Assembly: GCA_046331505.1 (NCBI GenBank)
Contig: JAXLQT010000036.1
Coordinates: 267 to 64,266, forward strand
Reading direction: 5' to 3'
Origin: Acidobacteriota bacterium
Lineage (GTDB): Bacteria > Acidobacteriota > Vicinamibacteria > JAXLQT01
DNA length: 64,000 bases
Positions 2,709 through 61,685 of this stretch are shown here, piece after piece. Each line of letters begins with the position of its first letter. Position 1 is the stretch's first letter. The notes beneath the pieces were generated by a model that was given only the letters and a program-made list of their open reading frames with translations, was not told the origin of the DNA and searched no databases. A program made the position numbers and the translations under genes.

Positions 2709-2784
2709 CGGCGAAGATGCTACCGGATCTCGCCGCCGAGCCGCGGAGTAAGATTCTTCCTTTTACGGACAGCCGCGAGCGACC

Positions 2785-10147: not shown

Positions 10148-10154
10148 GGCGTCC

Positions 10155-14837: not shown

Positions 14838-14895
14838 CCCCTCTCGCGGAGCGCCAAGTTACCACGCGCGGGCGATCGCCACATCGATGCCAGCG

Positions 14896-21785: not shown

Positions 21786-23845
21786 TCACCAGATCCAGAG
21801 GACGTCTCGTCCGCCGCCGTCTTGGTCCAGGAGCAACGTGCAACGCCTGCCGGTGAGCCACCGCGCGACGTCCGCGGGGTGGTAATCAGGCGGGTACTCG
21901 CGCCCACTCCGGCCGTCGACGACCGTCTCGATCCGTTCGCCCAGGTCCGTCGCTGCACCGGAGAGATCCAGGCCGCACTCCCCGCCTCCGTCCAGCACCA
22001 CGTCGATCGCGACGACGCCATCGTCCGTGGCGAGAAGGCGCACGATCGATCCGCCGTACGGGTGCCCCACGGGGAGAGGATCGCAGGCGGCCGCCTCCGC
22101 GAACGGGCCTGAGAGCCAGCATCGAACCGAGGCATCGCGACACTCCGGGCATGAGACGTGAAAGAGCCGCCGTCTCCTCGCGGCACGGTCGAGCGCCGGA
22201 ACCAGCACGCCGGCGCGATACCGGAACGGCGTCGCCTGGAAGTAGGTGCCGTCGCCCCGGACCGGATCCGATCCGCGGGCCCACTGCGTGACGTTGACGA
22301 TGATCTCGTCCTCGATCGCCTCGAATGTGCCGACGCCGTAGTCGTGGACCGTGAACAGGAGCGGAGCTCCGCCGCTGCCGTCGAGGATCGCGACCGTCCA
22401 GTAGGCGATGCCCAGACCGTTGCCGGTGTAGCAGTGGCGCGCGACGATGAGCTCCCTGTCTCCATCGCCGTCGAGATCGGCCATCAGCACCTCGAAGTCC
22501 CGCGGATCGAAGCCAGGACTCGACCATCGCGCGATCACCTGCGCGCGACGCTCGATGCGCGCCTCCTGATCGGATCCCGTTCGTCCCACGCAGACGCGCT
22601 CCGTCCGGCCGACCGCGACGCACCAGGACTCGTCGCAGCCTTTGGATGGATCCCGGCTCGGGGCCGGAAACTTCTCGAGCAGCGCCGGGCGGATGGGCGG
22701 CGCGGCACGGAAGGCTGACCGGACGACCGGCCTCCGCCCGCCGAGAACCCGCGCGAGGCGTGCGTATCCTCTGGCCGCTGCGTAGTCAGCCGCCGTACGG
22801 CCCCAGCGATCCTCCTGTCGCCGATCGCCGCCCGCCCGGACGAGCGCGAGGGCGATCGCCTCCTGACCCGTCTCCGCGGCGAGCATGAGCGCGCTGCGTC
22901 GGTCCTCCGTCAGCAGGTTGGGGTCCGCACCCGCCCGAAGCAACGCCGTGACGATCCGCCGACGTCCACGGTGCGCGGCGTACATGAGCGCCGTCACGCC
23001 GTACTCGTCCCTTCCGTCGACGGGGAGTCCCTGCGAAAGGAGCAGCCGCACCATCGCGGCGTCGTCGCGCACGACCGCGGCCGAGAGCAACGTCGTGCCC
23101 TCACCTCCTCGCCGCTGGGATCCGCTCCCGCCACCAGGAGCTGCCTAGCGGTGCGTACCCTCGAGGCCTCGACGGCCGCGCGAAGCGCCCGGCGTTCCGC
23201 CACTCCACCGTCATCGGAGAGTTCTCCGAGCGCGAGGAGACGCTGCAGGAGAACGACGTCTCCTCGCTCCGCCGCCCACGCGACCACCTTTCGCCGCTCA
23301 TCCCGCGCCAGAGGCACCGTCCTCTCCAGAAGCGCGCTCACGCACGGCACGCACCCGGCCTCCACGGCTTCCTCTAGGGGCGTGTGACGGTCGCCTTCGG
23401 GCCAGACTGGCCTCGCGCCCGCGCGCAGCGCCTCCCGGATCACGGACGCGCAGCCAGACCTCGCCGCAAGGACGAGATCGGCAGTGCCGTGATCCCAGAC
23501 CTTGATGCCAACGCCGAGAAGCAACCGGGCGGCCCCAACCTGACACTGCTCCGCCGCGAGCGCGATCGCCGTCTTGCCGTCCGGCCCCGCGGCGTCGATC
23601 TCGGCTCCGGCATCGAGCAAGACCCTCATGGTCTTCAAGTGACCGCCCATCGCAGCGAGCATCAGCGCCGTCTCGCGCTCGCAGGTGGTCGCGCCGACGA
23701 GCTCGGGCGCCGCCGCCAGGAGACGCTTCACCTCCGCTGCCCTGCCCTGCCGCGCCGCCGCCAGGAAGGCCGCGGTCGGATCCTCGGACGCGCTCGCGCC
23801 CGACCACCACACGAGCCAGGCGGCCACCGCCGCCTTCGCAGTCAA
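21786..23845 (-). CDS. secreted ankyrin-repeat protein with Cys-rich/FG-GAP-like C-terminal domain; apparent frameshift near 23095-23112
   Basis: ORFs 22994..23845 (signal peptide plus ANK repeats, ending ..LLVAGADPSGEE then junk) and 21786..23090 (..GTTLLSAAVVRDDAAMVRLLLSQGLPVDGRDEYGVTALMYAAHRG..) join into continuous ANK repeats if one frame change is allowed. Confidence 0.6.
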
Positions 23846-24095
23846 GCTTCTGTCCTCGACCAGCGACGATCCAAGCCGCGTGCCACGACCTGCTCGCCCG
23901 TGCCCTCCCCGATCGTGTCACCACGTCAACGGCGCGAGGGTCGGCGAGTGCGCCCCGCTGACACGCGCGTCGCTTCGACGAAGGCTCGCGACGGTCCGCG
24001 CGCGGGCCCCAACTACCCCCTCGCAGCACGAGGCGCGACGAGGACGCCCAGGAAAGGGCTTGACTCCTGGCGCCAGATAAGATAGCCTTAATCAA

Positions 24096-26042: not shown

Positions 26043-26714
26043 TCACGACGTGCGCGGCACGCGCCGGGACAGCCAGGCGGCGACGTCCCGGATCTCCTCG
26101 GGCAGGACGTGGTGCGCCATCGGGTAGGTGTGGAACTCGACGTCGTAGCCGAGCTCCTCGAGCTGACGGCGGCAGAGCTGTCCGAGCGGCAGCGGCAAGA
26201 GTGGGTCGTGGGTGCCGTGGGCCTGGAAGATGGGCGTGCTCTGGTTGGCGGGGCTGCGCTCCGTTGCGAGGGCTTCGGCCTCGATGAGGTAGGTGGAGAG
26301 GGCGAGGATCCCCGCGAGCTTCTCGGGGTGGCGAAGGCCGGCGTAGAGCGCGATGGCGGCGCCCTGGGAGAAGCCGGCCAGGAGGATGCGATGCGGGGCG
26401 ATGCCGCGAGACGTCTCGCGGGCGATGAGGTTCTCGACGTCCTCCTCCGACTCGCGGACGTCGCCCATGTCGTAACCGGCCGCGGTGCCGAGATCGGTGA
26501 TGTCGTACCAGGCGGGCATGAGCATGCCCATGTTGACCGTCACGCATCGCCGCGGAGCGTGGGGGAAGACGAAGCGCACGTGAGGCAGGCCCAGCTCGGG
26601 GACGATGGGCTCGAAGTCGTGGCCGTCGGCGCCGAGGCCGTGGAGCCAGATGATCGATCCGGAGTGCGGCTCCACGGGCTCGACATCGACCGTCGGGAGC
26701 AGCGGCCGCGCCAT
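26043..26714 (-). CDS. carboxylesterase/phospholipase (alpha/beta hydrolase, Abhydrolase_2)
   Basis: Start ATG at 26714 (TGATG overlap with the upstream stop). Motifs are IIWLHGLGADGHDF, the nucleophile elbow GFSQGAA, and HGTHDPLLP. Confidence 0.85.
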   Translation of the reverse strand: MARPLLPTVDVEPVEPHSGSIIWLHGLGADGHDFEPIVPELGLPHVRFVFPHAPRRCVTVNMGMLMPAWYDITDLGTAAGYDMGDVRESEEDVENLIARETSRGIAPHRILLAGFSQGAAIALYAGLRHPEKLAGILALSTYLIEAEALATERSPANQSTPIFQAHGTHDPLLPLPLGQLCRRQLEELGYDVEFHTYPMAHHVLPEEIRDVAAWLSRRVPRTS

Positions 26715-28747
26715 CAGGAGGAAGCCGTCGCTTCGTAGACCTTCGCGTCGATGAACAGGCGCACGACGTCGGAGTCGAGCTGGCCTTCCTTCACCTCGGC
26801 CTCGATGATGGCGAGCGCCTTTGGGACGGGCACCGCCTTCTTGTAGGGGCGGTCGCTCGCGGTGAGGGCGTCGTAGATGTCGGCGACGGTCATCATCCGC
26901 GACTCGATGGGGATGCGCTCGGCGATGAGCTTGCGCGGGTAGCCCTTCCCGGTGAGCTTCTCGTGATGGGCGTAGGCGATCTCCGGCACGCGCTGGAACT
27001 CGCGCGTCCACGGGATCTGGGAGAGGAACTCGAAGGTCTGCGTGACGTGGGACTCGATCTGCCGCCGCTCGGTCTCGTCGAGGCTCCCGCGGCGGATGGA
27101 GAGGAGACGCACCTCCCTCTCATCGAGGAACGGCCGCTCCTCGCCGCCGATGTCGCGGTAGGTCCGTGATCCGAGCTTGTGGATGGCATCGAAGTTGCCC
27201 TCGGCCAGCACGGTCGGCTCGTTGGCGATCAGGACCGTCGCGAGCGCGTCGTCCACGAGGCCGAGCTCGGCCTGGAGCCGCTGCTCGATCTCGGGGATCT
27301 CCTTCTCGAGCCCGGAGGCTCCGCGGCCGAGCAGCGTCTCCACCTTCTGTCGCAGTGTCTCCGCCTCGATCCACTTCTTGATGTAGGCGAACCGTGCGCG
27401 TACGAGATCAAGGTGCGCCGGGTAGAGCTTCTTGCCCTTTACCAGCACCTCCTCGCGGACGCCGACCTTGCCGAAATCGTGGAGCAGCGCTGCGTAGCGG
27501 ATCTGCTTCATCTGGTCGCTGGTGAACGACACCTGGCGGAACCGTCCCTCGCCGGAACGGGCGACGACGTCGGCGAGCGACGTCGTCAACGTCGCCACGC
27601 GGAACGAGTGGCCCGACGTGGTGGGATCGCGCTGCTCGATCGCGGTCACCGACGCGGAGACGAACCCCTCGAAGAGGTTCCGCACCTCGGCGTAGAGCTT
27701 GTTGTTCTCGATCGCGACCGCCGCCTGTCCCGCGAGCGAGAGCACGAGGTCGACGGTCGGCGTCGAGAACGTGATCACCTCGTCGTCGACGTTCTGCTGC
27801 GTCAGCCTCCGGCCGCCCCGCTGGCGGCGGCGGTTGATGAGCTGGAGCACTCCGAGCCGCTCGCCCTTCACGTTGGTCATCGGCACCACCAGGACTGACT
27901 TGGTGCGGTAGCCGCCCTTCTGGTCGAAGGAGCGATCGAAGCTCAGCTCCGACCCTTCCGGCAGGTTGTAGGCGTCCTCGATGTTGAGCACCTGCCCCGT
28001 CAGGACCACGAACCCGGCGAGGCTGCTCTTCTTCAGAGGCAAGGGCGTGCTCTCGCTCTTGTCGAAGTTGACCGAGTCGTTCTGCGCCACGCGGAAGATG
28101 AGGCACGGCTCCCCTTCGCGCTCCTCGAGCAGGTAGAGGCTCCCGGCGTCGCACCCGGCGAGCTCCCGCGCCTTCCGCAGGATGAGCGAGAGCAGCTTGT
28201 CGAGATCGCGCTCGGTGGAGAGCGCCATGCCGATCGCGTTGAGCTCGCGAAGCTCGCGCGTCCGGTGGATGAGCTCGCTCTCGAGGAGCCTCGCGCGCCG
28301 CACCTCGAGTGCGGTCAGCGCGGCGCTCTTGATCTGCCGCAGAAGCGTCCTCGGCCGGAACGGGGGCGGGGCGTAGGAGAACACGCGCTCCTCCGGGATC
28401 GCCTCGGGCCGGTCCTCGGGATCGCAGACCAGGATGACGCCGATGTCTTGCCGCAGCGCGAGAGTCGCGACGGCCGACGGCTGGAGCGCCTCCGCGGCGC
28501 CCGCCCCGAGCGCGAGCACCATGATCTGATCGCCCTCGATCGCCGGGAGGTCCGCGCCCGGCGCGAGCCGCGCGACCTGGATGCCGAGCGCTCTGGCAAG
28601 GAGCGCGGCCTCGTCGAGGGTCGCGTCCGCCGAGAACCCGAGGACCATCAGGGGCTCGACGGCGGTGCGCGCGAGCGACGGCAGCTCCTGGGTCTCGGAC
28701 GTCTGCCGGCTGTGCATCGGGACCTCGCGCATGGAGCGTCCACCCAT
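26714..28747 (-). CDS. GAF + HD-GYP domain protein (probable c-di-GMP phosphodiesterase)
   Basis: 677 aa. The GAF region is DAGSLYLLEE...LQLINRR. The split HD-GYP has HSFRVA, LLHDFGKVGV and HHEKLTGKGYP. The N-terminal ~150 aa are unrecognised. Confidence 0.8.
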   Translation of the reverse strand: MGGRSMREVPMHSRQTSETQELPSLARTAVEPLMVLGFSADATLDEAALLARALGIQVARLAPGADLPAIEGDQIMVLALGAGAAEALQPSAVATLALRQDIGVILVCDPEDRPEAIPEERVFSYAPPPFRPRTLLRQIKSAALTALEVRRARLLESELIHRTRELRELNAIGMALSTERDLDKLLSLILRKARELAGCDAGSLYLLEEREGEPCLIFRVAQNDSVNFDKSESTPLPLKKSSLAGFVVLTGQVLNIEDAYNLPEGSELSFDRSFDQKGGYRTKSVLVVPMTNVKGERLGVLQLINRRRQRGGRRLTQQNVDDEVITFSTPTVDLVLSLAGQAAVAIENNKLYAEVRNLFEGFVSASVTAIEQRDPTTSGHSFRVATLTTSLADVVARSGEGRFRQVSFTSDQMKQIRYAALLHDFGKVGVREEVLVKGKKLYPAHLDLVRARFAYIKKWIEAETLRQKVETLLGRGASGLEKEIPEIEQRLQAELGLVDDALATVLIANEPTVLAEGNFDAIHKLGSRTYRDIGGEERPFLDEREVRLLSIRRGSLDETERRQIESHVTQTFEFLSQIPWTREFQRVPEIAYAHHEKLTGKGYPRKLIAERIPIESRMMTVADIYDALTASDRPYKKAVPVPKALAIIEAEVKEGQLDSDVVRLFIDAKVYEATASS

Positions 28748-28805
28748 TTTAGCGACGGGCGCGGCAACCGGCGAGGCGCGCCATCGCTGCTATCATCCTC
28801 TCCCC

Positions 28806-37454: not shown

Positions 37455-37491
37455 GGCGGGGGACGAGCCCCCGCCCCGCGGAACCGCGGGG
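37455..37491. terminator. double GC-rich hairpin between convergent genes (REP-like first hairpin)
   Basis: GGCGGGGG-acgag-CCCCCGCC (37455-37475) overlaps CCCCGCGG-aa-CCGCGGGG (37474-37491). The first hairpin closely resembles the 48-bp repeat unit at 42190-42416. Confidence 0.4.
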
Positions 37492-38612: not shown

Positions 38613-41512
38613 CTATTCGAGGCGGCGCGCATGGAGGAGCACGCGGCGGCGCCCGTAGCTTCCGAGGTAGCGTTCGCGCAGACGCTCGGGGAGGTCGGCC
38701 GCGATCGAGAGGACGGTGCGCGCGGACTCGTCGAGGTGCCCGGCCGCCTCGGCGATGCCGAGGGCCTTCTCGATCTCGCCGAGCCGTAGCGCCGCGATCC
38801 ACAGGAGCTCGCGCTGGCCGGTGCGTTTCACGATCTCGTAGCTCCGGCGCGCGAGACCGATCGCTCTCTGGGGCGGCAGGGCCTCGGCGAGGACGCGCGC
38901 CGCCCGCGCCTGGGTGTCCGACGTGCCGCTCTCGGCGATGGCGATCAGCGCCTCGCGATCCGCGTCCGTGAGCTCGCCCGCGCGGTGGCGCAGCGTGATG
39001 TCGAAGACCTCGTGCCACCGCCGATCCGAGGGCGAAGGGTGCGGACCCTGGGCGAGCACGGTCTCGAGGTGGCGGCGCGCCTGCCCGAGGTTGCCGCGCT
39101 CCATCTCGAGCTCGACCAGGGCGAAGAGGGCGCTCGACGTCTCTCCCACGTATCCGTGCTGCTGGGCCAGGGAGAGCGCTTCGATCAGCTTCTCCTCGGC
39201 GGCATCGAAGTCGCCGATCCCGAGCAAGGCGTTGCCCGCCGACGACAGGCCTCGAACCAAGGACAGCGTGCTGGAGGTCGCGCGGCTCTTCTCCTCGATC
39301 TCCAGGCACATCGCGAGCGCCTCCCCGAGCCTGCCCAGGCTGAGGAGTGCGTTGGCACGAGCCACCTGGCAGGCCACGGCCACCGGCGCCGGCGCCGCCG
39401 TCCGGTCGAGCATCGAGACGGCTTCCTCCGCCAGGGCGAGCGACCGTTCGTAGTCGCACCGGTTGTTGGCGATGGCCGCGAGGTTCACGAGCGCGATCGC
39501 CGCGCCTTGATGGTCGCCGCGCCGCCGCTGGAGGCGGAGGCACTCGTTGAGGTAGCTCTCGGCCTCGTCGAGCTCCTCGACGGTGATGTGCAGCGTGGCG
39601 AGGTTGTTGAGGGCTCGCGTCACCCCGAGCGTGTCGGAGAGCCCCTCGAAGATGCGCAGCGCCGCACGGTGCTCGGCGATCGCCTCGGGGAGCTTTCCGA
39701 GCGCGTGGTAGGCGTTCCCCGTGCTCGTGCAGACGTTCCCGTAACCGTCGGGATCGCCGAGCTTCTCGTAGAGCTCGCGCGCCGCCTTCAGATCCGCGAG
39801 CGCGTCGTGCAGCTCCCCCATCGCGTACTTGATCGCCCCGACGGTCCGGTGGACCGCGGCAAGGAGCCTCTCGTCCCGCGCGCGGTGCGCGAGCGCGAGC
39901 GCGCGGTGGCTCGCGGTCGAGGCCTGGTTCAGATCGCCGCGCCGGATCCCGAGGTTGGCCACCTCGTCGAACAGTAGCGCCCGCTCGACGACCAGCTCCT
40001 CGGTACACTCGCGCTGCGCGCGATCGAGCAGCGCCTGGGCATCGCCCACCTGGCCGTCGCGCGATCGCGCCCGTCCCTGCTTTCGCAGGAGCCGCACCCG
40101 ATCCTCCGCAAGGAGCAGCCCTTCCCCTTCCTCGAGGATGCGCGCGAACCCTTTCGCCGCCTGGTCGAGGCTGCCGGTGCGTGCCTCGATGTCGGCCAGC
40201 CCCTCGTGTGCGTAGAGCCGCTCCACCTTCAGGGCCCGCGATTTGCGCCCGCGCCGCGACACGTCCTCGAAATGGCGGCGCGCCTCCTCGATGCGCCCCC
40301 GCCCGAACGCGTGCTTGCCCGCATCGAGCAGCTTCCCCGCGCCGGAGAGCTCGTCGCCGGAGAGGATGAGATGGCGCCCCACCTCGGAGCTCTTCTCCTC
40401 GGGATCGAGGTCGTCCTCCTCGACGATCCGCGCGAACTGGGCGTGGTAGAAGCGGCGCTTGTCCTCGGGGATCTGGGCGTAGACGATGAGGCGCTCCTCC
40501 GACTCCTGGAAGATCATGCGGAGCTTCCCGCCGGGATAGGAGCGGCGCAGGATCCCCTGGGAGAGCAGCGCGCCGGTGAGAGAAGCCACCTCGTCGCGCG
40601 AGAAGCCGCCGAGGCGATCGAAGCGCCAGAAGTTGATGCCCGTCGCGCTCACCGCGGTGACCTCGAGGAGCTCGCGGAGCGGCTCCGACAGCCGCCCGAA
40701 GCGGCGCTCGAAGAGCGGGCGCATGCCGGACGCTCCAGACGACAGCAGCGCCAGGATCTCGCTCTGCGGCAGCGGCTCCGCGTGCAGAGCGAGCTCGTCC
40801 GCGAGCAGCTTCGCGGCGCGAGGGCTCCGGTGCCAGCTGTCGAACAGCGCGGTGGCGGCGCGGGCCGCGAGGTCGGCCTCGACGCCGAGGTCCCGCATCA
40901 GCGACGCGAGCTCGGCGGCCGTCAGCGGCTCCAGGCGGACCTGCCGGCGCTCGTGTGGTCCAGGGTACCTGATGCGGAGGTCCCGTCCGCCGTCGGTCGC
41001 GATGAGAACGGCCCGGGGGCCGCACCCCGCATAGGTCGCCGACGCGACCACCTTGGAGAGGAACCGGAGCAAGAGCGGCTCCGCGTGCTGGCCCTCGTCG
41101 AGCACGAACACCGCGCCGCGATCGGTGAAGCGTTCCTGCATCGCGGGCACGAGGTTCGGCGTGGCGCCGGTCAGAGCAACCTCCGCGAAAAGCGCGTCCG
41201 CCTTCTCCGCGCGCCGAGCGCTTCGCGCACGGTGACGTCGATCGCCTCCCGCGATGCCGGCGAGAGCCCCGCCGAGAGCGCCCGGGCGAGCTCGGGCAGG
41301 CTCGTCACCGACGCGCCGCGTCCGGGATAGGCCTCGAGGGCCAGCACGTCCCACCCCGCACGGACGAACCGATCCTTCAGATGGGTCAGAAGCGTGGTGC
41401 TCCCTCCTCCCCCCTCGCTCATCACCTCGACGAACTGTGGCGGCGCCCCCGGCGGGAGCTCCGCCAGCAGGTTCCAAAGCGTGGCGGCCTCGGCCCTCTC
41501 GAACGGCGTCAT
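38613..41512 (-). CDS. AAA_16-like NTPase (degenerate Walker A) + TPR-repeat protein; apparent frameshift near 41205-41220
   Basis: The N-terminal piece is the tail of ORF 41171..41905, from ATG 41512: MTPFERAEAATLWNLL...VEVMSEGGGGSTTLL...REALGA. It continues in the 954-aa ORF frame (..AEKADALFAEV...AVFVLDEGQHAE Walker B-like), followed by many TPR-like repeats. Confidence 0.65.
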
Positions 41513-41583: not shown

Positions 41584-42180
41584 TCAGCGCCCGCGGGGAC
41601 TCCGCTCGACCACTTCGTCGATGATGCCGTAGGCGCGCGCCTCCTCGGCCGTCATGAAGTTGTCGCGATCGGTGTCCTTGCGGATGTCCTCGAGGGTCTT
41701 GCCGGTCCTCCTCGCGAGGATCTCGTTGAGCTGATCGCGCATCTTCAAGATCTCGCGCGCGTGGATCGCGATGTCGGTCGCGCGTCCCTGGGCGCCCCCG
41801 AGCGGCTGGTGGATCATGATCCGCGAATGGGGCAGCGCGCGCCGCTTGCCCTTGGTGCCGCAGGCCAGGAGGAACGCGCCCATGGACGCGGCCTGCCCGA
41901 TGCACACGGTCTCGACGTCGCAGGCGATGTAGTTCATCGTGTCGAAGATGCCGAAGCCCGACGTCACGTAGCCACCGGGGCTGTTGATGTAGAAGGTGAT
42001 GGGCTTGGTCGGGTCCTGCAGCTCGAGGTAGAGGAGCTGCGCCACGATGAGCTGCCCCTTGTCGTCGTTCAGCTCGCCCGTGAGGAAGACGCAGCGCTCC
42101 TGGAGGAGCCGGGAGTAGAGATCGAAGCCGCGGTCGCCCTTGTCGGACGGCTCGATGATGGTCGGGATCTGGACTGGCAT
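41584..42180 (-). CDS. clpP: ATP-dependent Clp protease proteolytic subunit
   Basis: 198 aa. [23 protein letters not shown] (Ser), RIMIHQP (His) and [12 protein letters not shown] are textbook ClpP. Confidence 0.95.
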
Positions 42181-42189
42181 GGATGGCCT

Positions 42190-42416
42190 TTCGGTGAGAA
42201 CCGGCGGGGGATAAGCCCCCGCCCTACGTCCTTCTGCTTCGGTGAGAACCGGCGGGGGACAAGCCCCCGCCCTACGTCCTTCTGCTTCGGTGAGAACCGG
42301 CGGGGGATAAGCCCCCGCCCACGTCCTTCTGCTTCGGTGAGAACCGGCGGGGGATAAGCCCCCGCCCTACGTCCTTCTGCTTCGGTGAGAACCGGCGGGG
42401 AGAAGTCCCCCGCCCT
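42190..42416. repeat. tandem array of 4.7 copies of a 48-bp unit, each with a GC-rich hairpin (REP/BIME-like), directly upstream of clpP
   Basis: Units start at 42190, 42238, 42286 (47 bp, one T missing), 42333 and 42381 (diverged): ttcggtgagaaccGGCGGGGGataagCCCCCGCCctacgtccttctgc. Read on the clpP strand, each hairpin is preceded by GTAG. Confidence 0.85.
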
Positions 42417-42464
42417 CCGCGCTCGTTCGCGGCACACCGAATTTCGACTCTGGGAGGCTCGGTG

Positions 42465-42770
42465 TCAACTCCTCCCCGGCCGATCGGCCTCCTCGAGGAA
42501 CATCTCCATCGCGAGCACGAGGGCGCGCAACGCATCCACCATGCGACGCGCCTCGTGACGCTCGCCGGCCGCCATTCCTTCCGCCCACGCTGACAGCGCT
42601 TCGGGCGGGCACGCGCCGAGGCGCAAGAGCGAGTCGCGAAGCCACGTCCCGATGCGATCGGAAGGCCCCTCCGCGGACCCGATCTCCTCGAGGAGCTTCT
42701 TGATCCGGATCTGCTCCTCGTCGCCGAAGCGGAGCTTTCCCAGGCGCTTTTCGACTTCTTCGGACTTCAT
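42465..42770 (-). CDS. small hypothetical protein (101 aa)
   Basis: ATG at 42770 (MKSEEVEKRLGKLRFGDEEQIRIKKLLEEIG...). It has good G/C-ending codon bias, lies within junk ORF 42465..43112, and is divergent from the PP2C gene. Confidence 0.55.
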   Translation of the reverse strand: MKSEEVEKRLGKLRFGDEEQIRIKKLLEEIGSAEGPSDRIGTWLRDSLLRLGACPPEALSAWAEGMAAGERHEARRMVDALRALVLAMEMFLEEADRPGRS

Positions 42771-42814
42771 GGAGACGCGAACCGTGCCTCGCGTTCCAGC
42801 GTATTCTTGCAGAG

Positions 42815-44878
42815 ATGCGCGGTCCGCAGCTCGATCTCTCTGGGCTCCCCGCGCAGGCGCCCCGCACGCGCTTCGGCCGCGCGCTGCGCGGCTGCGTCCT
42901 GACCAACATCGCAGTCTCTGTGGTCGTCCTGCTCCTGTCTCCGTCCTGGGTGACGCGTGCCGGCGCCGTGTTCGGGATCGTGCTCGTCCTCCCGGTGATC
43001 GGCTTCTGGGGGATCCAGTGGTTCCGGAGGAAGGTGCTCTGGAAGGTCCGGCGGCGGCTCTTCGTGAGCTTCCTGCTGATCGGCGTGCTGCCCCTCTTCC
43101 TGTCGCTGTCACTGTCCCTCGTCGCCGAGGTGTTCTACGCCTTCTTCGCGAGCGCCTCGGCGGTGAAGCTCGCGCTCCAGGAGGTGGGACCGACGGTGGC
43201 GCTCATCGCAGACAACGCCTCGACGATGGCCACCCACCTCGCCGCCCACGGCCGCGAAGGCGCGGGCGACGAGCCCGGAGAGCTCCTGCCGCAGGGAATC
43301 CAGAGGCGCTTCCCGGGCATCGCCATCCACCGCATCGGCCCGGGAGCCGACCGCGATCCGACCGACTCCAAGAAGGCGATGCCCGAGTGGATGCGCGGCC
43401 CCGCGGTCGACGCCCTGTTCCTCGAGCCGGGATACCACGTCGCGTGGGCGAGCCTGCGGGTCGTCGAAGGCACCGAGGACCGGGTGCTGATCGTCCTGCC
43501 GCTCGACGAGAAGCTCGTGGAGGAGCTGCGCGGGCGCCTGGGCATCGGCACGCTCGTCAAGGTCCTCGCTCTCGACGAAGGGTGGGACGACGAGGACAGC
43601 CACGACCCCGGCATCACGATCGACACCGGAGGTCACCGGGCGCACATCAACGGAGACGACGACACCGAGGAGTTCTTCAAGCAGGTCAAGACGAGGCTGA
43701 ACGAGATCGGGCGGCCCCTCCCTTACCTCTGGGGCGTGACGATGGCGACACAGCGGTGGGAGGATCGGAAGCCGGCCGACGTGCTCGTCTTCTTCGCGTC
43801 GTCGTTCGGCGGCGATCTCGATCGCATGAAGGGCGCCTACTCCGGGGCGCCCGGCGAGTTCGTCAAGGCGCTCGGGATCGTCTTCGTCGCGTGCTTCGTG
43901 CTCGCGTACATGATCTTCCTCGGGATGGGGGTCCTCATCGCGGGCGCGGTCTCGGGGGGGATCGGGAGGCTCTACCAGGCCACGACGGAGTTCGCGCGCG
44001 GAAACCTCGACTTCCGGATCAAGGTGCGCCAGCGCGACCAGCTCGGCCACCTCGCGGCGTCGATGAACGCGATGGCGGACAACGTCCAGCGCCTCCTGCG
44101 CGAGTCCGCCGAGCGCGAGCGGCTCACCCAGGAGTTCGCGCTCGCCCAGGAGGTGCAGAAGAAGCTCCTCCCTCCCGCGTTGCCCCCCTTCTGCGGCGCG
44201 ACCGTCGCCGGCCGGCTCAAGCCGATGAGCGAGGTCGGCGGCGACACCTACGACTGGATGACGCTCTCGGACCACGAGCTCTTCGTGATGATCGGCGACG
44301 TCTCCGGCCACGGCCTGCGTCCCGGCCTCCTCGCCGCGATGGCCAAGGCGTGCCTCATGACGAAGGTGACGCACGACACCGGCCACCCCGCGATCCTCCA
44401 GGCGCTCCACAAGGTGGCCCTCGGCGCAATGGACCGCCGCCTCTTCATGACGGTGTCGCTCGCGACCTTCGACTTCACGGCCCACACGGTGACCCTCTCT
44501 TCGGCGGGCCACCCGCCGACGCTACGCTACCGGGACGGCGCCGTGGCCGAGCTCGGCGACGCGACGTACCCGCTCGGCGTGCGCGAGCAGCGTGAGTTCA
44601 CGTCGCGGGTCCACGACCTCGCGGCGGGCGACGTCTACCTGCTGATCTCCGACGGCGTCGTCGAGGGTCGCAACGGCAACGGCGACGTCTGGGGCTACGA
44701 CCGACTCTGCGACTCTCTCGCGCGCCACGCCTCCCGTCCGGCGGAGGAGATCCTCGACGGCATCCTCGACGATCTGCACTCCTACTGCGGCAACCGTCCG
44801 CAGGACGACGACATCACACTGGTCGTCGTCCAGATCGCCTCCGCTCCTGCTCCGGCAGGGGAGGCTCCCACGACCTAG
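42815..44878 (+). CDS. membrane-bound HAMP + PP2C/SpoIIE-family serine phosphatase (RsbU-like)
   Basis: 687 aa. TM helices flank a periplasmic-like domain. The HAMP region is around IGRLYQATTEFARGNLDFRIKV. PP2C motifs are EVGGDTYDW, VMIGDVSGHG, SAGHPP, LLISDGV and DDITLVVV. Confidence 0.85.
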   Translation: MRGPQLDLSGLPAQAPRTRFGRALRGCVLTNIAVSVVVLLLSPSWVTRAGAVFGIVLVLPVIGFWGIQWFRRKVLWKVRRRLFVSFLLIGVLPLFLSLSLSLVAEVFYAFFASASAVKLALQEVGPTVALIADNASTMATHLAAHGREGAGDEPGELLPQGIQRRFPGIAIHRIGPGADRDPTDSKKAMPEWMRGPAVDALFLEPGYHVAWASLRVVEGTEDRVLIVLPLDEKLVEELRGRLGIGTLVKVLALDEGWDDEDSHDPGITIDTGGHRAHINGDDDTEEFFKQVKTRLNEIGRPLPYLWGVTMATQRWEDRKPADVLVFFASSFGGDLDRMKGAYSGAPGEFVKALGIVFVACFVLAYMIFLGMGVLIAGAVSGGIGRLYQATTEFARGNLDFRIKVRQRDQLGHLAASMNAMADNVQRLLRESAERERLTQEFALAQEVQKKLLPPALPPFCGATVAGRLKPMSEVGGDTYDWMTLSDHELFVMIGDVSGHGLRPGLLAAMAKACLMTKVTHDTGHPAILQALHKVALGAMDRRLFMTVSLATFDFTAHTVTLSSAGHPPTLRYRDGAVAELGDATYPLGVREQREFTSRVHDLAAGDVYLLISDGVVEGRNGNGDVWGYDRLCDSLARHASRPAEEILDGILDDLHSYCGNRPQDDDITLVVVQIASAPAPAGEAPTT

Positions 44879-44923
44879 GGCGGCGGAGGCGGCGGACCTC
44901 CAGCGGATCCCGTGCGGGCGTAG

Positions 44924-44932
44924 TGCTAGAAT
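44924..44932 (+). promoter_or_regulatory. candidate extended -10 promoter element (TGcTAGAAT) upstream of the Pup-like ORF
   Basis: TGCTAGAAT lies 43 nt upstream of GTG 44975. No convincing -35. Purely a motif match. Confidence 0.25.
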
Positions 44933-44974
44933 CTGGTCCACGCGGCGCGCCGCGAAAGGCTCGGAGGTACGTCA

Positions 44975-45154
44975 GTGCGAAAGTCGAATGCAGAGGCGCG
45001 AGAGTCGAAGTCGGGAGTCGCCAGGGTGCTTCCGGCCACGGAGGAGAGCGCGAAGTCGAAGGCGGCGGCGCTCGTCAAGGACCTGAAGCGCGATGCCGCA
45101 AAAGATCCGAAGGACTACGTGACCCGCTGGGTCGTGCCGGGAGGCGGCGAGTAG
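44975..45154 (+). CDS. Pup-like small protein modifier (59 aa) ending Gly-Gly-Gly-Glu
   Basis: Below the 60-aa cutoff of the ORF track. GGAGG at 44963-44967 lies 7 nt before the GTG. Translation: MRKSNAEARESKSGVARVLPATEESAKSKAAALVKDLKRDAAKDPKDYVTRWVVPGGGE*. By hand count, 48 of 59 codons end in G/C. It is immediately upstream of a Pup-ligase family gene. Confidence 0.65.
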   Translation: MRKSNAEARESKSGVARVLPATEESAKSKAAALVKDLKRDAAKDPKDYVTRWVVPGGGE

Positions 45155-45237
45155 CCCGCCCGCTCCGGCGACCGCGGGGCGCAACCGAACGCGGCCCGTC
45201 CCGGCGCGCGGCGTCCGCGCAGCCGTCCCAGCCCGAT

Positions 45238-47145
45238 CGCCGCATCTTCGGGCTCGAGACCGAGTACGCCATCCTCTTCGAGCCTGCCGCCGGAGAGCGG
45301 CAGGCGCCCGACGGCCCGTCCATCTACGACGCCATCTCCGCGAGCGTCCTGTCCCGCGTGCGGGCGCTCCCCGCCAGGCACCGCAAGCACGGCCACTTCC
45401 TCGAGAACGGCGCCTTCCTCCATTACGAGGGACGCGCGGAGTCCGAGCCCCAGGGCCTCCTCGAGCTCTCCACGCCGGAGTGCCGTACCGCGAGGGACGT
45501 GGCGCTGTACAGCAAGGCGGGCGAGAAGCTCCTTGCGGATGCCCTGCCCGACGCCGAGAAGACGCTCGCCGCCGCGGGCTATCCGGGGACCATCGTGCTC
45601 GGGAAGAACGCCCGCGACGCCTTCGACAACACGTACGGAAGCCACGAGAACTACCTGGTCCGCGACCCGATCCCCCGCGCCAGGGCGCTGCTGCTCCTGG
45701 CGGCGTTCCTCGTCCTCCGGCTGCCGCTCCAGCTCTACGACGTGCTGCGCAGGGCCGGCGAGCTCCTCTACGTCATCCTGACGTTCGGCCTCTACCTGTG
45801 CGGGCTCGCGGTCATGCTCGTCCTGCGCCTCTTCAGGCGCCGAGACGAACGGTCCATTCCCCAGCGCATCGATCGCTTCCTCGAAGAGGTCGACGACGTC
45901 CTCCGGCCCCCCGTGCGCCGCGTCGGGATGGCCTTCCACCTCCTCTTCCGCCCCGCGGCGCGGCTCCTCTCGGCATTCATGAGGCTGTTCCTGTTCGAGG
46001 ACATCCGGAGGTTCCTTCCCACCTTCCTCGCGACGCGCCAGATCTTCACCGGCGCGGGCCACTTCTCGCGCGATCCGGACGAGCCGATCTTCTCCGTCAC
46101 CGAGAAGGCCGCCTCCATCACCTGCGTGACGCGCCTTTACTGGGACGACGCGCGCCATCGCCCGATGATCGACCTGAAGAACTTTCTCTTCGACGCGCGC
46201 GCCGTCGTGGCGCCGGAGAAGCGCCTGCAGCTCGTGCTGTCGGACTCGAACATGAGCGACGTCGCCGACTTCCTGAAGTTCGGCACGACGTCGCTCGTGC
46301 TGAGAGCGATCGAGGAGGGCGCCATCCCGGCGGGCCTGTGCCTCGCCGATCCCGTCGACGGCCTCCATCGCGTCGCGGGCGACCCCGAGCTCCGCACCAA
46401 GCTCGCGCTCGCGGACGGCCGCGAGCTGACCGCGCTCCAGATCCAGTGGGAGTACCTCACCCTTTGCGAGGGGCTCTTCCGAAGGAGCGGCACCGTGAGC
46501 ATCTCGGATCGCGAGGTGCTCCGGGAGTGGCGCCAGACCCTGACGGACCTGGAAGCGGATCCGGCCCTCGCCTCGGACCGGCTGGACTGGCCGCTCAAGC
46601 TGTTCCTCATCGGCCAGTCTCTCGAGGACGTCGATGCCCCGGATGCTCCCGGCGGCGCCGAGGATCCCCTGGCCGCGCTCGAAGTACTGGATCCGTGGCG
46701 CGAGATCGTGCTCCAGGCCGAGCTTTCCGGCGTCGATCTCAAGGGCGACGGGCGGGACATGGATCGCCTGCGCGCGCTCTTGCCCCGCGACGTCTTCGAG
46801 CGGCTCCAGCGGGGCCTCGCCTTCCGCCGCCTCGATCCCTCACGCCTCGAGCGGCAGGCGGATCGGATCTACCGGGCAAAGAAGGCCGACCTCAAGTACC
46901 ACGACATCACGCCGGGCCGCGGGTACTACGCCCGGGCCCGCGCGACGGAGCTCGCGCGGCCGCTGCACGACGACGAGAGAGTCGCCTGGGCCGCGAACAA
47001 CCCGCCCGCGGGGACCCGCGCCGCCCTCCGAGGAGCGTTCGTGAAGAGCCACCACCGCGATCCTGGGGGACGCGTCAACTGGACCGGTGGTCGCGCCCGC
47101 AAGGCGCGCGTGCGGTTCGGATCGCCATTCGACACGGACGCGTGA
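45238..47145 (+). CDS. PafA/Dop family (Pup-ligase/deamidase fold) protein with a ~100-aa hydrophobic insertion; true start undetermined
   Basis: RRIFGLETEYA, FLENGAFLHYE...LSTPEC, GKNARDAFDNTYGSHENYL, FLATRQIFTGAGH, LVLSDSNMSDVADFLKFGTTSLVL, LKYHDITPGRG and PPAGTRAALRGAFV parallel M. tuberculosis PafA motifs as I recall them. 45238 is the first conserved codon, not a start codon. Confidence 0.85.
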   Translation, partial: RRIFGLETEYAILFEPAAGERQAPDGPSIYDAISASVLSRVRALPARHRKHGHFLENGAFLHYEGRAESEPQGLLELSTPECRTARDVALYSKAGEKLLADALPDAEKTLAAAGYPGTIVLGKNARDAFDNTYGSHENYLVRDPIPRARALLLLAAFLVLRLPLQLYDVLRRAGELLYVILTFGLYLCGLAVMLVLRLFRRRDERSIPQRIDRFLEEVDDVLRPPVRRVGMAFHLLFRPAARLLSAFMRLFLFEDIRRFLPTFLATRQIFTGAGHFSRDPDEPIFSVTEKAASITCVTRLYWDDARHRPMIDLKNFLFDARAVVAPEKRLQLVLSDSNMSDVADFLKFGTTSLVLRAIEEGAIPAGLCLADPVDGLHRVAGDPELRTKLALADGRELTALQIQWEYLTLCEGLFRRSGTVSISDREVLREWRQTLTDLEADPALASDRLDWPLKLFLIGQSLEDVDAPDAPGGAEDPLAALEVLDPWREIVLQAELSGVDLKGDGRDMDRLRALLPRDVFERLQRGLAFRRLDPSRLERQADRIYRAKKADLKYHDITPGRGYYARARATELARPLHDDERVAWAANNPPAGTRAALRGAFVKSHHRDPGGRVNWTGGRARKARVRFGSPFDTDA

Positions 47146-47157
47146 CCCGGTGCCGCG

Positions 47158-48288
47158 TCACTTCGCGACGCGGCGGAGCTCGCTCTTTCGCCCGGGTGGG
47201 AGCGCGCGTAGCTGGGCGGAGCGCCACGAGATCCCCTCGCGGCCCGCGATGGCGCGGAGCACCCTGAACGCGGCGTCGCCGAGCCACCCCGGCGTGGCGC
47301 AGAGCGCGGCGAGGGCCGGGAGCTCCGCCTTGCCTCCGATCGCCTCGGCGGCGTGCAGGTGCTCGACGCGGAGCTCGTCGCGCAACGTCGACAGGAGCTC
47401 GCGAAGCTCCACCGCGGCCACGCGGCTCTCCTGAGACGCCAGGGCGAGATGGGCGCGGGCCGACAGGGCCACGACCTCCTGGCGATCCCGCGGGCGCGCG
47501 TGGAGCGCTTCCCCCGCGCGCTTGCACACCTCCCACAGCGGGGGGATCAGCGCGGCGTCTTTGACCTCGGTCGCGAGGAGCGCGAGGAGGCCCAGGCGGA
47601 CCGGTTCCGACTCCAGCTCGAGCCGCCGCGCGAGCGTCGAGACGGGGGTCACGCGCGCGACCGCGCGGCGGTGACGCAGCTCCTCCGGGGACTCGGGAAC
47701 GAACGCGAGGTACGCGTCGAGGCTCGGCGCCGCATCCGAGGGCGCGCGCTGCTGGGACGCATCGGCGGCAACGCGCATGTCGCCGAGATCGGCGAGGAGC
47801 TCGTCGAGCTCCCCCCCGGCGCGTTCGAGGGCAACGGGCGTCAGCATCGCGCCCTCCTGTGCGGACACGTTCGCCTCGCTCGCGCCGCTCACGCCGGCGC
47901 GCTGGAGGCGCGCGAGGCTCACGGCGATCGCAGCCAGCTCGGGAGGCCCCGCGGCGGGAACCAGGCCCGCGAGGGCGCGCACCGCCGCCGGCTTCTCGTA
48001 GGAGGCCAGGACCTTGATGGCGAGGATCGATCGCGCGCCGCGCCGCGCGCCCGCGGCACCCTCGAGAACGGGAATGACCCTCCGGTCCTTCAGCAGGCCC
48101 AGGAGCCGCAAGAGCCGCAGCGCCTGGAGCTCCTCCGCCGCGCCGAGCGCCTCGCAGATCGAGGGAAACGCGGGCGAGCCGATCACGAGCAACCGCGCCG
48201 CCGCCGCGGAAGCGCCATCGGGATCGGGGGCGGCGAGCCGCGCAAGGAGCTGCTGGATCTCGGTCCGCTTCGACGTCGCAATCGGCAA
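47158..48288 (-). CDS. HEAT/ARM-like helical repeat protein, function unknown
   Basis: 376-aa ORF, Leu/Ala-rich helical repeats (LLRLLGLLKDRRVIPVLEGAAG...AAVRALAGL). Convergent with the ligase gene. Confidence 0.5.
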   Translation of the reverse strand: MPIATSKRTEIQQLLARLAAPDPDGASAAAARLLVIGSPAFPSICEALGAAEELQALRLLRLLGLLKDRRVIPVLEGAAGARRGARSILAIKVLASYEKPAAVRALAGLVPAAGPPELAAIAVSLARLQRAGVSGASEANVSAQEGAMLTPVALERAGGELDELLADLGDMRVAADASQQRAPSDAAPSLDAYLAFVPESPEELRHRRAVARVTPVSTLARRLELESEPVRLGLLALLATEVKDAALIPPLWEVCKRAGEALHARPRDRQEVVALSARAHLALASQESRVAAVELRELLSTLRDELRVEHLHAAEAIGGKAELPALAALCATPGWLGDAAFRVLRAIAGREGISWRSAQLRALPPGRKSELRRVAK

Positions 48289-48325
48289 GAGGGGCCTTCC
48301 CGCGCGTCGCTATACTACCCGCCCG

Positions 48326-48817
48326 ATGGTCATGGTGAGGCGATCGATCGCGCTCACAGCGGTGCTCGCGGCGTCGTTGGCGGCGGCCGGGGAGCTTGCT
48401 CCGGTGACGGTCAAGCTCCCGTCGGGCACGGCGCTGCGGGGAGAGCTCGCGCAGGACGACGACGATCGCGCGCGGGGCCTCATGTTCCGCACGGAGGAGC
48501 AGTTCCAGCCCGATCAGGCGATGGTGTTCCTCTTCGAGACGATGGAGCTCCAGAGCTTCTGGATGAAGAACATGAACTTCGCGATCGACATCGTGTGGCT
48601 CTCGCCCGAGATGAAGATCGTTCACGTCGAGCGCGACGTGCCTCCGTGCACCAAGGAGGAGCGCGATTGCCCGCTCTACACTCCGGTGCAGAAGGCGCAG
48701 CTCGTCGTCGAGCTGTACCGCGGCACCTACGCCAAGGAGAAGCTGAAGGTGGGCGACGCGATCGAGGTCCGGACTCCGGACGGCAAGCCACTTGCCGTAC
48801 CGGGAAAGGACCCGTAG
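48326..48817 (+). CDS. DUF192 (COG1430) domain protein with signal peptide
   Basis: ATG at 48326 (MVMVRRSIALTAVLAASLAAAG). GLMFRTEEQFQPDQAMVFLFE...FWMKNMNFAIDIVWL is typical of DUF192. Confidence 0.75.
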   Translation: MVMVRRSIALTAVLAASLAAAGELAPVTVKLPSGTALRGELAQDDDDRARGLMFRTEEQFQPDQAMVFLFETMELQSFWMKNMNFAIDIVWLSPEMKIVHVERDVPPCTKEERDCPLYTPVQKAQLVVELYRGTYAKEKLKVGDAIEVRTPDGKPLAVPGKDP

Positions 48818-60187: not shown

Positions 60188-61685
60188 ATGGTCGAGACCA
60201 GCAAGCCCAGCATCCTCGTCGTCGACGACAACGACGAGATCCTCGAATTCCTCACGCTCCAGCTCGAGCGGCGCGGCTACCGGGCCATCACCTGCCGGCG
60301 CGGGCGCGACGCCGTGAGGCTCGCGCAGGAGCGGCGGCCCGACCTCGTGCTCCTCGACATCCTTGATGCCCGACGTCGACGGCTTCCGGATCTGCCGCAT
60401 GCTGAAGGACGATCCGGAGACCGCGAAGATCCCCGTCATCTTCCTGACGGCGAAGACGACCGACGTCGACAAGTTGAAGGGCTTCGAGGTGGGGGGCGAG
60501 GACTACCTCGTCAAGCCGTTCAAGATCCACGAGCTCATCGGCAAGGTGCAGATCTTCCTGCGCATCAAGGCGCTCATCGACGTCGCCGAGCAGAAGGCGA
60601 AGAGCGCCCGCGCGCTGTTCGAGATCGGCAAGCTCATGTGCGGGTCCCTCGATCTTCCGGAAGTCCTCTCGGCGATCACGGCGTCGGTGAAGGACCTGCT
60701 GCACGCCGACTCCGCCTCCATCATGCTCTGCGACGAGGAGCGGCGGAACCTCCGCGTGAGCCACGTGGAGGGCCCGTACGCCGAGCTCTACATCGAACGG
60801 ACGGTGCCGATCTCCGAGAGCATCGCCGGCTGGGTGGTCCGGCGCGGCGAGCCCGTGCTGATCGACGACATCGACAACGATCCGCGCTTCGGCGGCTTCC
60901 CGCGGCGGAGCCAGGTCAAGTCCGCGATGATCACGCCGCTCACCCACAAGGACGTCACCTTCGGCACGATCAACGTGAGCTACCTCGCCGAGCGACGGCT
61001 CGGGTCGGAGGCGCTCCAGCTCCTCTTCACGCTGTCGTCTCAGGCCGCGCTCGCCATCGCGAACGCCCGGCTCGTGGCGTCCATCCGGGCGTCGCACCTG
61101 CGCACGATCGAGGCGCTCGCCAAGGCGGTCGACCAGAAGGACAGCTACACCGCGAGCCATTGCGACAACGTCGCCGACTACGCCGCTTTGATCGCGGAGC
61201 GCCTGGGGCTCCCGGCGATCATCGTCGAGGAGATCCGGGTCGGCGGGATGCTCCACGACATCGGCAAGATCGGCATCGGGGACGACATCCTCAAGAAGCC
61301 CGCGCGGCTCGACACCGCGGAATACACGAGCATGATGGAGCATCCGAGCAAGGGCCACGAGATCCTGCTCGGCGCCGGCATCTCAGGCGCGACGCTCGAA
61401 GCCGTCCTGCACCATCACGAGCGCATGGACGGGAAGGGCTACCCGGCGGGCCTCGCGGGGGAAGAGATCCCGCTCGCGGCGCGCATCGTGCTCGTCGCCG
61501 ACGCGTTCGACGCGATGACGACGGACCGCGTCTACCGGAAGGGGATGCCGTTCTCCTCCGCCATCACGGAGCTGCGCAAGTACGAGGGGAGCCAGTTCGA
61601 CAAGGGTTGCATCGACGCGCTCTGCGAGGCGCTCGTCGCGGTGGGAAAGATCGTCGCCGCCGAGCTCGAGCAGGCGCAGCCGTAG
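60188..61685 (+). CDS. response regulator receiver + GAF + HD-GYP protein (RpfG-like); apparent +1 frameshift at ~60359-60366
   Basis: Frame A from ATG 60188 gives MVETSKPSILVVDDNDEILEFL...RRPDLVLLDI. Frame B (track ORF 60363..61685) continues (L)MPDVDGFRICRMLKDDPETAKIPVIFLTAK...VKPF, then GAF, then HDIGKIGI...HHHERMDGKGYP. Deleting one T in gacatccTTgatg restores DILMPDVDGF. Confidence 0.75.

Follow-up and report, generated by a model that had tools for sequence, protein, structure and literature searches.

The literature regards pupylation as an actinobacterial pathway coupled to the proteasome, and a branch unlinked to the proteasome and associated with the membrane was predicted in 2008. 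We describe here a Pup-like modifier gene and an adjacent PafA/Dop-family ligase gene on a 64-kb stretch of a single contig of an Acidobacteriota bacterium (GenBank assembly GCA_046331505.1, contig JAXLQT010000036.1, positions 267 to 64,266; this whole stretch is referred to as the window). In the in silico study of Iyer, Burroughs and Aravind (2008, Biol Direct 3:45, PMC2588565), the passages on Plesiocystis and Rhodopirellula describe a Pup and a Pup ligase unlinked to proteasome genes, in which the ligase is interrupted by a transmembrane insertion just C-terminal of core strand 4, the Pup gene is adjacent and the pair is linked to a membrane-protein gene. Pupylation of membrane or membrane-associated proteins, with a regulatory role, was proposed there, and the superfamily (GS, GCS) was said typically to work on small amines. 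A 2020 paper (PMC7947786) included single-copy planctomycete homologues merely as an outgroup to PafA and Dop, while Corynebacterium glutamicum provides a case of proteasome-less pupylation, in which ferritin is disassembled by ARC (PMC8223512). Judged by its sequence, the window locus belongs to the membrane-anchored Pup-ligase modules predicted in 2008 and represents them in Acidobacteriota. A preliminary description of this DNA had not recognised it as a described system, but the type is already present in those passages of PMC2588565, for Plesiocystis pacifica and Rhodopirellula baltica.

The ligase was assigned to the Pfam family Pup_ligase (PF03136) with 288.5 bits against a cut-off of 25, the match falling into three stretches because an insert splits the protein. 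The NCBIfam models for PafA (TIGR03686, 204 bits against a cut-off of 551) and Dop (TIGR03688, 192 bits against 492) both scored far below their cut-offs, with the PafA model ahead of the Dop model in six out of six family members tested. An AlphaFold2 (AF2) model based on a 60-sequence alignment (predicted local distance difference test score, pLDDT, 91; predicted template modelling score, pTM, 0.90) matched Dop (7oy3, E 5e-28, target-normalised TM-score 0.78) and PafA (4bjr, E 1e-25) in a Foldseek search of the PDB, the best matches spanning E 5e-28 to 1e-19. The GLETE, TPEC, HENY and DSNM motifs, together with Arg and Gly positions, were invariant across 60 homologues including canonical ones, and the Mg/ATP- and phosphate-binding motifs are invariant in canonical and insert-type enzymes alike. 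The motifs GhExE (strand 1) and [HQ]x[NH] (strand 4), as given in the consulted passages of PMC2588565, are present as GLETE and HEN(Y).

The insert comprises about 100 aa after HENYLV and consists of hydrophobic helices at residues 147-167 and 171-194 (approximate limits), a charged linker, and a hydrophobic or amphipathic helix at about 224-248. The distance from HENY to DSNM is correspondingly 196 aa in the window ligase and about 200 aa in the ligases of related modules, against 94-99 aa in canonical PafA. This extra segment is hydrophobic in nearly all module ligases, with a block of about 50 hydrophobic residues and often a second block. In the AF2 model, the insert forms a long helical hairpin (residues 145-197 and 205-249) projecting from the PafA/Dop core. 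From these features we infer that the insert is a transmembrane hairpin and that the catalytic domain lies in the cytoplasm at the inner membrane face. The ligase-fold enzyme and the membrane-type insert of the preliminary description are supported, as those of a PafA/Dop-type protein, by the PF03136 match, the AF2 and Foldseek results and the HENY-DSNM spacing.

Relatives of this enzyme were collected in several ways. A word-indexed protein search yielded about ten full-length relatives carrying the insert, and a scan of one genome per species contributed the best 80 of 94 confirmed loci, all of them at most 36% identical to the window ligase. The scanned loci belong mostly to Planctomycetota and Myxococcota, and also to Oligoflexales, Thermoanaerobaculia (Acidobacteriota), Leptospiraceae, Verrucomicrobiales, Vulcanimicrobiota and Ca. 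Uabimicrobium amorphum; genomes of at least 80 species thus carry the module. A HMMER search over 1.84 billion cluster representatives returned 6329 relatives at E < 1e-3. The top 150 of these measured 492-757 aa (all but two 510-690 aa) and scored above 367 bits, and all but about 17 of them matched in a single stretch across the insert region. Since these relatives match through the insert, the insert-type family is large, and the module extends over several phyla and hundreds of 50%-identity clusters.

An alignment of 93 ligases revealed a further signature of the insert-type enzymes. At the position of the catalytic Asp, Glu was found in 79 of 79 insert-type sequences and Asp in 14 of 14 canonical PafA and Dop sequences. 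In the window ligase, the replacing residue is Glu62, a site that we take to be that of Asp57 in Mycobacterium tuberculosis PafA (YLD). Insert-type enzymes moreover contain 7-8 extra residues past this Glu, ahead of GLxE..TPEC. In a neighbour-joining tree without support values, canonical PafA, Dop and UBact-associated enzymes grouped together, and the window ligase fell into a subclade with those of loci L001, L003, L005-L007, L014, L015, L019, L023 and L073. This subclade has an additional helical stretch in the C-terminal half.

The second component is the small open reading frame (ORF) upstream of the ligase, whose product ends in DYVTRWVVPGGGE. The long frame from GTG 44923, which is that of the ligase and overlaps the small ORF, is low in G+C at third codon positions (GC3), whereas the small ORF is high in GC3, so the small ORF is taken to be the coding frame there. 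Its stop codon lies 96 nt ahead of the GLETEY motif of the ligase. At 59 aa, with a GGGE end and beside a PafA homologue, the product falls within the range used to recognise Pup (50-90 aa, G-[EQ] end), and its size, terminal GGE and adjacency to the enzyme agree with the Pup definition in the passages of PMC2588565 concerned with it. Orthologous ORFs with a GGGE end occupy the same place in L001 (70 aa, ending in RYVVQWEVRGGGE) and in L106 (ending in YVLRWEVRGGGE), the ligase of the latter being 53% identical to that of the window.

A tag family was then assembled from the ORFs upstream of the ligases in the retrieved loci. Small ORFs ending in YLxETxVPxGGE and lying 20-150 nt upstream of the ligase were found in 73 cases among the scanned loci, with a few others ending in GAE or DGE. 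Of 82 loci, about 77 had a tag ORF immediately ahead of the ligase, and three or four loci were without an adjacent tag. The family has a median length of 55 aa, and every member recovered upstream of a ligase ends in Glu, none in Gln. Its median charge is -4, mildly acidic, compared with about -10 for canonical Pup and +2 to +6 in the window subclade, where the tail reads YVxxWxVxGGE instead of the YLxETxVPxGGE of the wider family. The "basic, Glu-terminated modifier" of the preliminary description therefore stands throughout the family as to its terminal Glu, and only within the window's subclade as to its basic charge. The tag is probably disordered.

The relationship of the tag to Pup was examined with profile methods. 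Neither the window ORF nor any of 65 family members matched the Pfam models for Pup (PF05639) or UBact (PF20513) at E values up to 1, and NCBIfam yielded no Pup or UBact match for the family. Owing to the limit of the word index, a homology search that used the 59-aa ORF as query recovered nothing beyond this ORF. With hhalign, the tag family aligned with a single Pup at P 7e-4 and with a 24-sequence Pup profile at P 1.3e-3 (hhalign probability only 18-26%), the alignment being in register up to the C-terminal GG and covering a Pup-like helical region that is kept in the tag. The corresponding value against UBact was P 0.05.

Some variation was seen at the tag terminus and at the junction with the ligase. 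Tags end in GAE in L005, L014, L015 and L023 and in DGE in L105 (...RGAE, ...SGAE, ...SDGE), that is, in the window's subclade and in one 36%-identical relative; given the GAE variants, the penultimate Gly is not absolutely required. In most of the loci L005-L084 the ligase starts a few nt past the stop codon of the tag, and the Gly codons of the tag tail form GGAG or GGAGG in several junctions (e.g. those of the window, L019 and L023). This sequence could serve as the Shine-Dalgarno element of the ligase, which would suggest translational coupling.

The structure search and the database annotation bear on which reaction the enzyme catalyses. Dop structures were the top Foldseek matches, the best named sequence matches are Dop, and the database name is 'PafA2 family', as would be expected if the enzyme were mainly a Dop-like hydrolase (depupylase), or bifunctional, with the true ligase encoded elsewhere. 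We consider this unlikely. Because the tags all end in Glu and never in Gln, no deamidase is needed; each insert-type locus has a single PF03136 gene; and the PafA model of NCBIfam outscored the Dop model in all six members, as described above. By a rough regular-expression measure, the GxExE-to-NG spacing of 46 aa (family median 46) is that of PafA (37-59) and not that of Dop (at least 85), and the same rough measure revealed no Dop-loop-sized insertion before NGxR(L/F)Y(V)D. Moreover, a published tree took the single-copy proteins as outgroup for PafA as well as Dop (PMC7947786).

The absence of Mpa and 20S proteasome genes from the window, as claimed in the preliminary description, was upheld by two kinds of search. 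When about 45 coding-like ORFs, selected with a coding-potential map of the whole 64 kb, were scanned with Pfam, no Proteasome domain (PF00227) and no Mpa-type AAA or OB domain were found, and phmmer searches with Mpa, PrcA and PrcB of Nitrospira and Cellulomonas against all window ORFs of at least 30 aa gave no match. The same lack of linkage was found among the relatives, with Mpa or PrcA/B located within about 10 kb of the ligase in none of about 82 Glu/insert-type loci, as against about 11 of 22 canonical Asp-type loci. In the first set of loci, PrcA and PrcB seeds matched (phmmer) in two canonical comparator loci only, and Mpa seeds in these two and in two Chloroflexota loci with canonical-type ligases only. 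A metagenome scan with the window ligase found no close relative and yielded 18 loci, all at most 36% identical and of the canonical Asp type, which served solely as a contrast set; in many of them, the neighbouring genes include Mpa, PrcB or a further paralogue of the ligase. The tag and ligase are thus unlinked to Mpa and the 20S proteasome both in the window and in about 82 related loci.

A locus of this kind might also be a decayed or accessory paralogue of a full canonical Pup-Mpa-20S cluster located elsewhere in the genome, and in this respect the view is confined to one 64-kb contig. The start of the window ligase points the same way. No ATG, GTG or TTG occurs between the stop codon of the small ORF and RRIFGLETEY, the only in-frame candidates being CTG 45127 and ATC 45244, of which the latter begins the database gene call, whereas the relatives in L001 and L106 have GTG starts that the window lacks. 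Third-position G+C stays high from CTG to ATC (45127-45250), as if this stretch were coding. A frameshift fusion of the Pup-like ORF with the ligase was considered as an explanation for the missing start and judged unlikely, as the tag needs a free C-terminus and the relatives start separately with GTG. Against decay, the 636-codon frame is intact and has, by definition, all residues that are invariant in the 60 aligned homologues; the pair is conserved in at least 80 species of many phyla with a signature of its own (Glu at the Glu62 position, insert, GGE tag); and insert-type loci are never beside Mpa or Prc genes, unlike canonical loci. We therefore regard a decayed or accessory paralogue as highly improbable.

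The best-supported reading, and on balance a probable one, is that the module constitutes a minimal membrane-localised pupylation system whose consequences do not run via Mpa-20S; each of the four alternatives weighed in this text was rated less likely. In such a system, the insert hairpin would anchor the cytoplasmic catalytic domain at the inner membrane face, and the enzyme would phosphorylate the gamma-carboxylate of the terminal Glu of the tag, a step for which Dop-type deamidation is unneeded because the tag already ends in Glu. Lysine side chains of proteins in or near the membrane would then receive the tag, with Glu62 taking the part of the catalytic Asp in PafA. The outcome may be regulatory, or targets may be passed on to machinery other than the proteasome, for example a membrane AAA+ protease, as opposed to degradation by Mpa-20S, and the same enzyme might reverse the mark.

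Several observations weigh against membrane-localised pupylation. The first hydrophobic segment of the window ligase is less hydrophobic than those of its relatives, and the ligase lacks a canonical start codon. The Foldseek results and database names tilt slightly to Dop, and the homology of the tag to Pup at the sequence level is only marginal. With Glu in place of the catalytic Asp, the chemistry could differ. Clustering of the neighbours across loci revealed no conserved third gene, and a literature search found no experimental work on any member of the insert-type branch.

In another alternative, the Glu of the tag is joined to a non-protein membrane amine (e.g. phosphatidylethanolamine, as in Atg8 lipidation, or an envelope precursor), giving a peptide anchored to lipid or envelope in place of pupylated proteins. 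The ligase would be embedded in the membrane by an insert that in the model lies beside the active-site strand, the GS/GCS superfamily has mostly small-amine substrates according to the passages of PMC2588565 on it, the Asp-to-Glu replacement and the loop of 7-8 residues are specific to the insert-type family, and no conserved target gene was seen among the neighbours. The whole fold, including its C-terminal domain, is nevertheless of the protein-modifying PafA/Dop type, and the tag keeps the Pup-like helical region in register, so that we judge a non-protein acceptor to be very unlikely. For its most specific form there is a slim chance at best: ligation of the Gly-Gly-Glu tail to a membrane amine such as phosphatidylethanolamine would, by analogy, make the module of Planctomycetota, Myxococcota and Acidobacteriota a bacterial counterpart of Atg8 lipidation that is independent of the Pup fold.

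The arrangement of the features around the pair is given in Table 1. The phosphatase, the Pup-like ORF and the ligase stand in a row, with clpP nearby, at the positions first noted, and Pfam confirmed most of the genes named there. A promoter and terminator scan of 42100-48400 detected none, such a scan being uninformative at 70% GC.

Table 1. Features of the window around the Pup-like modifier and ligase genes (positions are those of the window).
Feature	Position	Strand	Basis and remarks
HAMP-PP2C (SpoIIE-type) membrane phosphatase	42815-44878	+	Pfam HAMP E 8e-10, SpoIIE/PP2C E 2e-42; hydrophobic segments
Pup-like modifier gene, 59 aa, GTG start	44975-45154	+	product ends in KDYVTRWVVPGGGE, net charge +4; GC3; orthologues
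PafA/Dop-family carboxylate-amine ligase, 633 aa from ATC 45244	45244-47145	+	PF03136 E 1.3e-85; start possibly CTG 45127
Predicted membrane-type insert of ligase, residues ~145-249	45676-45990	+	directly past HENY strand (core strand 4)
Glu62 codon of ligase, catalytic-Asp position	45427-45429	+	alignment of 93 ligases
Convergent 376-aa all-helical protein, weakly HEAT-like; lineage-specific neighbour	47158-48288	-	HEAT_2 E 2.7; AF2
102-aa ORF, divergent from PP2C gene; lineage-specific neighbour	42465-42773	-	conserved in L001
clpP	41584-42180	-	CLP_protease E 4.5e-80 (Pfam); 2.8 kb from small ORF
AAA_16/TPR protein (STAND-like)	38613-41477	-	Pfam; 3.5 kb away
DUF192 protein	48014-48817	+	Pfam

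The PP2C gene is co-directional with the small ORF and lies 96 nt upstream of it. Its HAMP and PP2C domains, together with hydrophobic segments at residues 22-114 and 344-384, indicate a membrane sensor phosphatase. In the closest relative, L001 (L001/L002), whose ligase is 56% identical and lies on an Acidobacteriota_UBA4820 contig of a metagenome-assembled genome, the whole neighbourhood is common with the window: the row comprises E1_dh, AAA/TPR, clpP, a small ORF, HAMP-PP2C, the 70-aa ORF and the ligase, followed beyond the ligase by a convergent 396-aa protein, DUF192, rpsR and dnaJ-dnaK-grpE-hrcA. Among about 100 loci, however, PP2C was found within 10 kb of the ligase in four lineages only (the window, L001/2, L007 and L034), and the gene upstream in L106 is not PP2C. 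The PP2C-pup-ligase order is accordingly restricted to the window and L001/L002, which share the entire region anyway, and clpP and the HEAT-like protein, listed in the layout of the preliminary description, are common to the window and L001 only.

PP2C or partner switching as a feature of the family was therefore rejected for its occurrence in few lineages, and kept as a weak hint for the subclade. Partner-switching genes (STAS, RsbW-like HATPase_c_2, GAF histidine kinase and GAF-PP2C) were observed at L003 (65-3026) and L007 (4291-9843), whose ligases are tag-less and belong to the window's subclade. These genes hint at a signalling link within that subclade, as distinct from a family trait, and the HAMP-PP2C protein may be a target or regulator in the window's lineage, outside the conserved module.

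For the convergent neighbour, the position given in the preliminary description was right, and its HEAT identity is weak only (E 0.0045 in the orthologue; Table 1). A single-sequence AF2 model of this 376-aa protein was all-helical at low confidence (pLDDT 52), and an orthologue was found in L001/L002 only (phmmer 1e-59). Two canonical Asp-type Pup-ligase homologues have C-terminal fusions, to HEAT in P0060 and to TPR in P0115. The P0060 fusion was considered as a clue to the HEAT-like neighbour and set aside, since a canonical Asp-type enzyme is uninformative for the module. A third sequence, P0108, is a Dop-Pup read-through product and probably a frameshift artefact. The 102-aa ORF is kept in L001 (phmmer 2.6e-30) and had no match in Pfam, NCBIfam or PADLOC.

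The clusters obtained from the neighbours across loci were discarded, as they consisted of antisense shadows of the ligase, synteny of closely related Pirellulaceae, and one single-linkage group in which Ser/Thr kinases, sigma-54 activators and GAF proteins were mixed. Proteins of the latter three kinds are abundant in such genomes, and no enrichment is claimed for them. The neighbours, assorted membrane proteins among them, differ from locus to locus, and no gene downstream of the ligase is conserved. A polytopic membrane protein (406 aa, 9-10 hydrophobic segments) is encoded directly past the ligase in L009 and L013 (Oligoflexales), and a 213-aa membrane protein with 4-5 segments overlaps the stop codon of the ligase in L011 and L035; these may represent the 'linked membrane protein' of Iyer et al.

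The neighbourhood also bears on a role in anti-phage defence, in which ubiquitin-like conjugation systems are known to act, or in a mobile element. The STAND-like AAA_16/TPR gene 3.5 kb from the pair could be seen as a sign of such a function. PADLOC, in contrast, matched neither the ligase nor the tag, nor the PP2C and HEAT-like proteins, the surroundings are of a housekeeping kind (clpP, rpsR, hrcA-grpE-dnaK-dnaJ), and base composition is uniform, with G+C at about 70% throughout the window. We give this explanation almost no credence.

Other features of the window were noted in passing. A 48-bp unit is repeated in tandem at 42190-42416, between clpP and the 102-aa ORF (4.8 copies, 96% identity), and every unit contains a G+C-rich hairpin, GGCGGGGG-ATAA-CCCCCGCC, an extra copy of which lies at 37455-37475; five hairpin matches were observed where none was expected by chance. 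The array looks like repetitive extragenic palindromic (REP) elements, and it is not CRISPR because it has no unique spacers. Two neighbouring ankyrin-repeat proteins are encoded at 21786-23917 (-), and two GAF and HD/HD_5 proteins at 26714-28789 (-) and 60318-61685 (+), the second of which also has a receiver domain. Coding-like ORFs without a Pfam match include one of 1079 aa (2752-5991, +, GC3 0.90) and those at 1563-2375, 10149-10937 and 13854-14858.

If active, the module would represent ubiquitin-like tagging in a minimal form, operating at the inner membrane of bacteria, with a recognisable signature of a Glu-ended tag, Glu for the catalytic Asp, one enzyme and no unfoldase at the locus. 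Its occurrence in cultivable hosts (Rhodopirellula, Plesiocystis/Enhygromyxa, Ca. Uabimicrobium) makes the role of pupylation without a proteasome testable.

Compared with known systems, the locus shares with UBact (Nitrospirae and other Gram-negative phyla; PF20513, locus L085) a Pup-family-like tag outside Actinobacteria beside PF03136 enzymes. The UBact cluster is arranged as Mpa-Dop-UBact-PrcB-PrcA-PafA, with soluble Asp-type enzymes and a tail of ...RQRTGE, whereas the window has a different cluster and neither a PF20513 match nor an R[ST]G[EQ] tail. With C. glutamicum it has in common a tag without a 20S proteasome, but ARC/Mpa, Dop and a soluble PafA are kept in that organism and none of these was found at insert-type loci. 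Canonical actinobacterial pupylation (Pup, PafA, Dop, Mpa/ARC, PrcBA) is similar in its PF03136 fold and active-site motifs, in a tag of 45-90 aa that ends in GG[EQ] and is encoded beside the enzyme, and in the presumed chemistry from gamma-glutamyl phosphate to a lysine isopeptide. It differs in that the window locus is without Mpa, the 20S proteasome and a Dop paralogue, has a ligase that is predicted to be membrane-anchored, with Glu at the Asp57 position, and encodes a tag that is unrecognised by the Pfam Pup model and basic, unlike the acidic canonical Pup.

The Plesiocystis/Rhodopirellula type is the closest. In the passages of PMC2588565 that concern it, it has, like the window, a single PafA homologue with an insert past the [HQ]x[NH] strand (HEN), an adjacent Pup, no proteasome linkage and a membrane-protein gene nearby, for which HAMP-PP2C would be the counterpart in the window. 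Those passages contain no mention of the Asp-to-Glu replacement and give four transmembrane segments, whereas the window ligase has two clear hydrophobic helices and one amphipathic helix. The window host moreover belongs to another phylum, Acidobacteriota, as judged by its synteny with the UBA4820 contig, and its subclade is distinguished by a net-basic tag, the YVxxWxVxGGE tail and the extra helical stretch in the C-terminal half. The window contributes a subclade from Acidobacteriota whose tag is basic and which may be connected to PP2C signalling, as opposed to a new kind of system.

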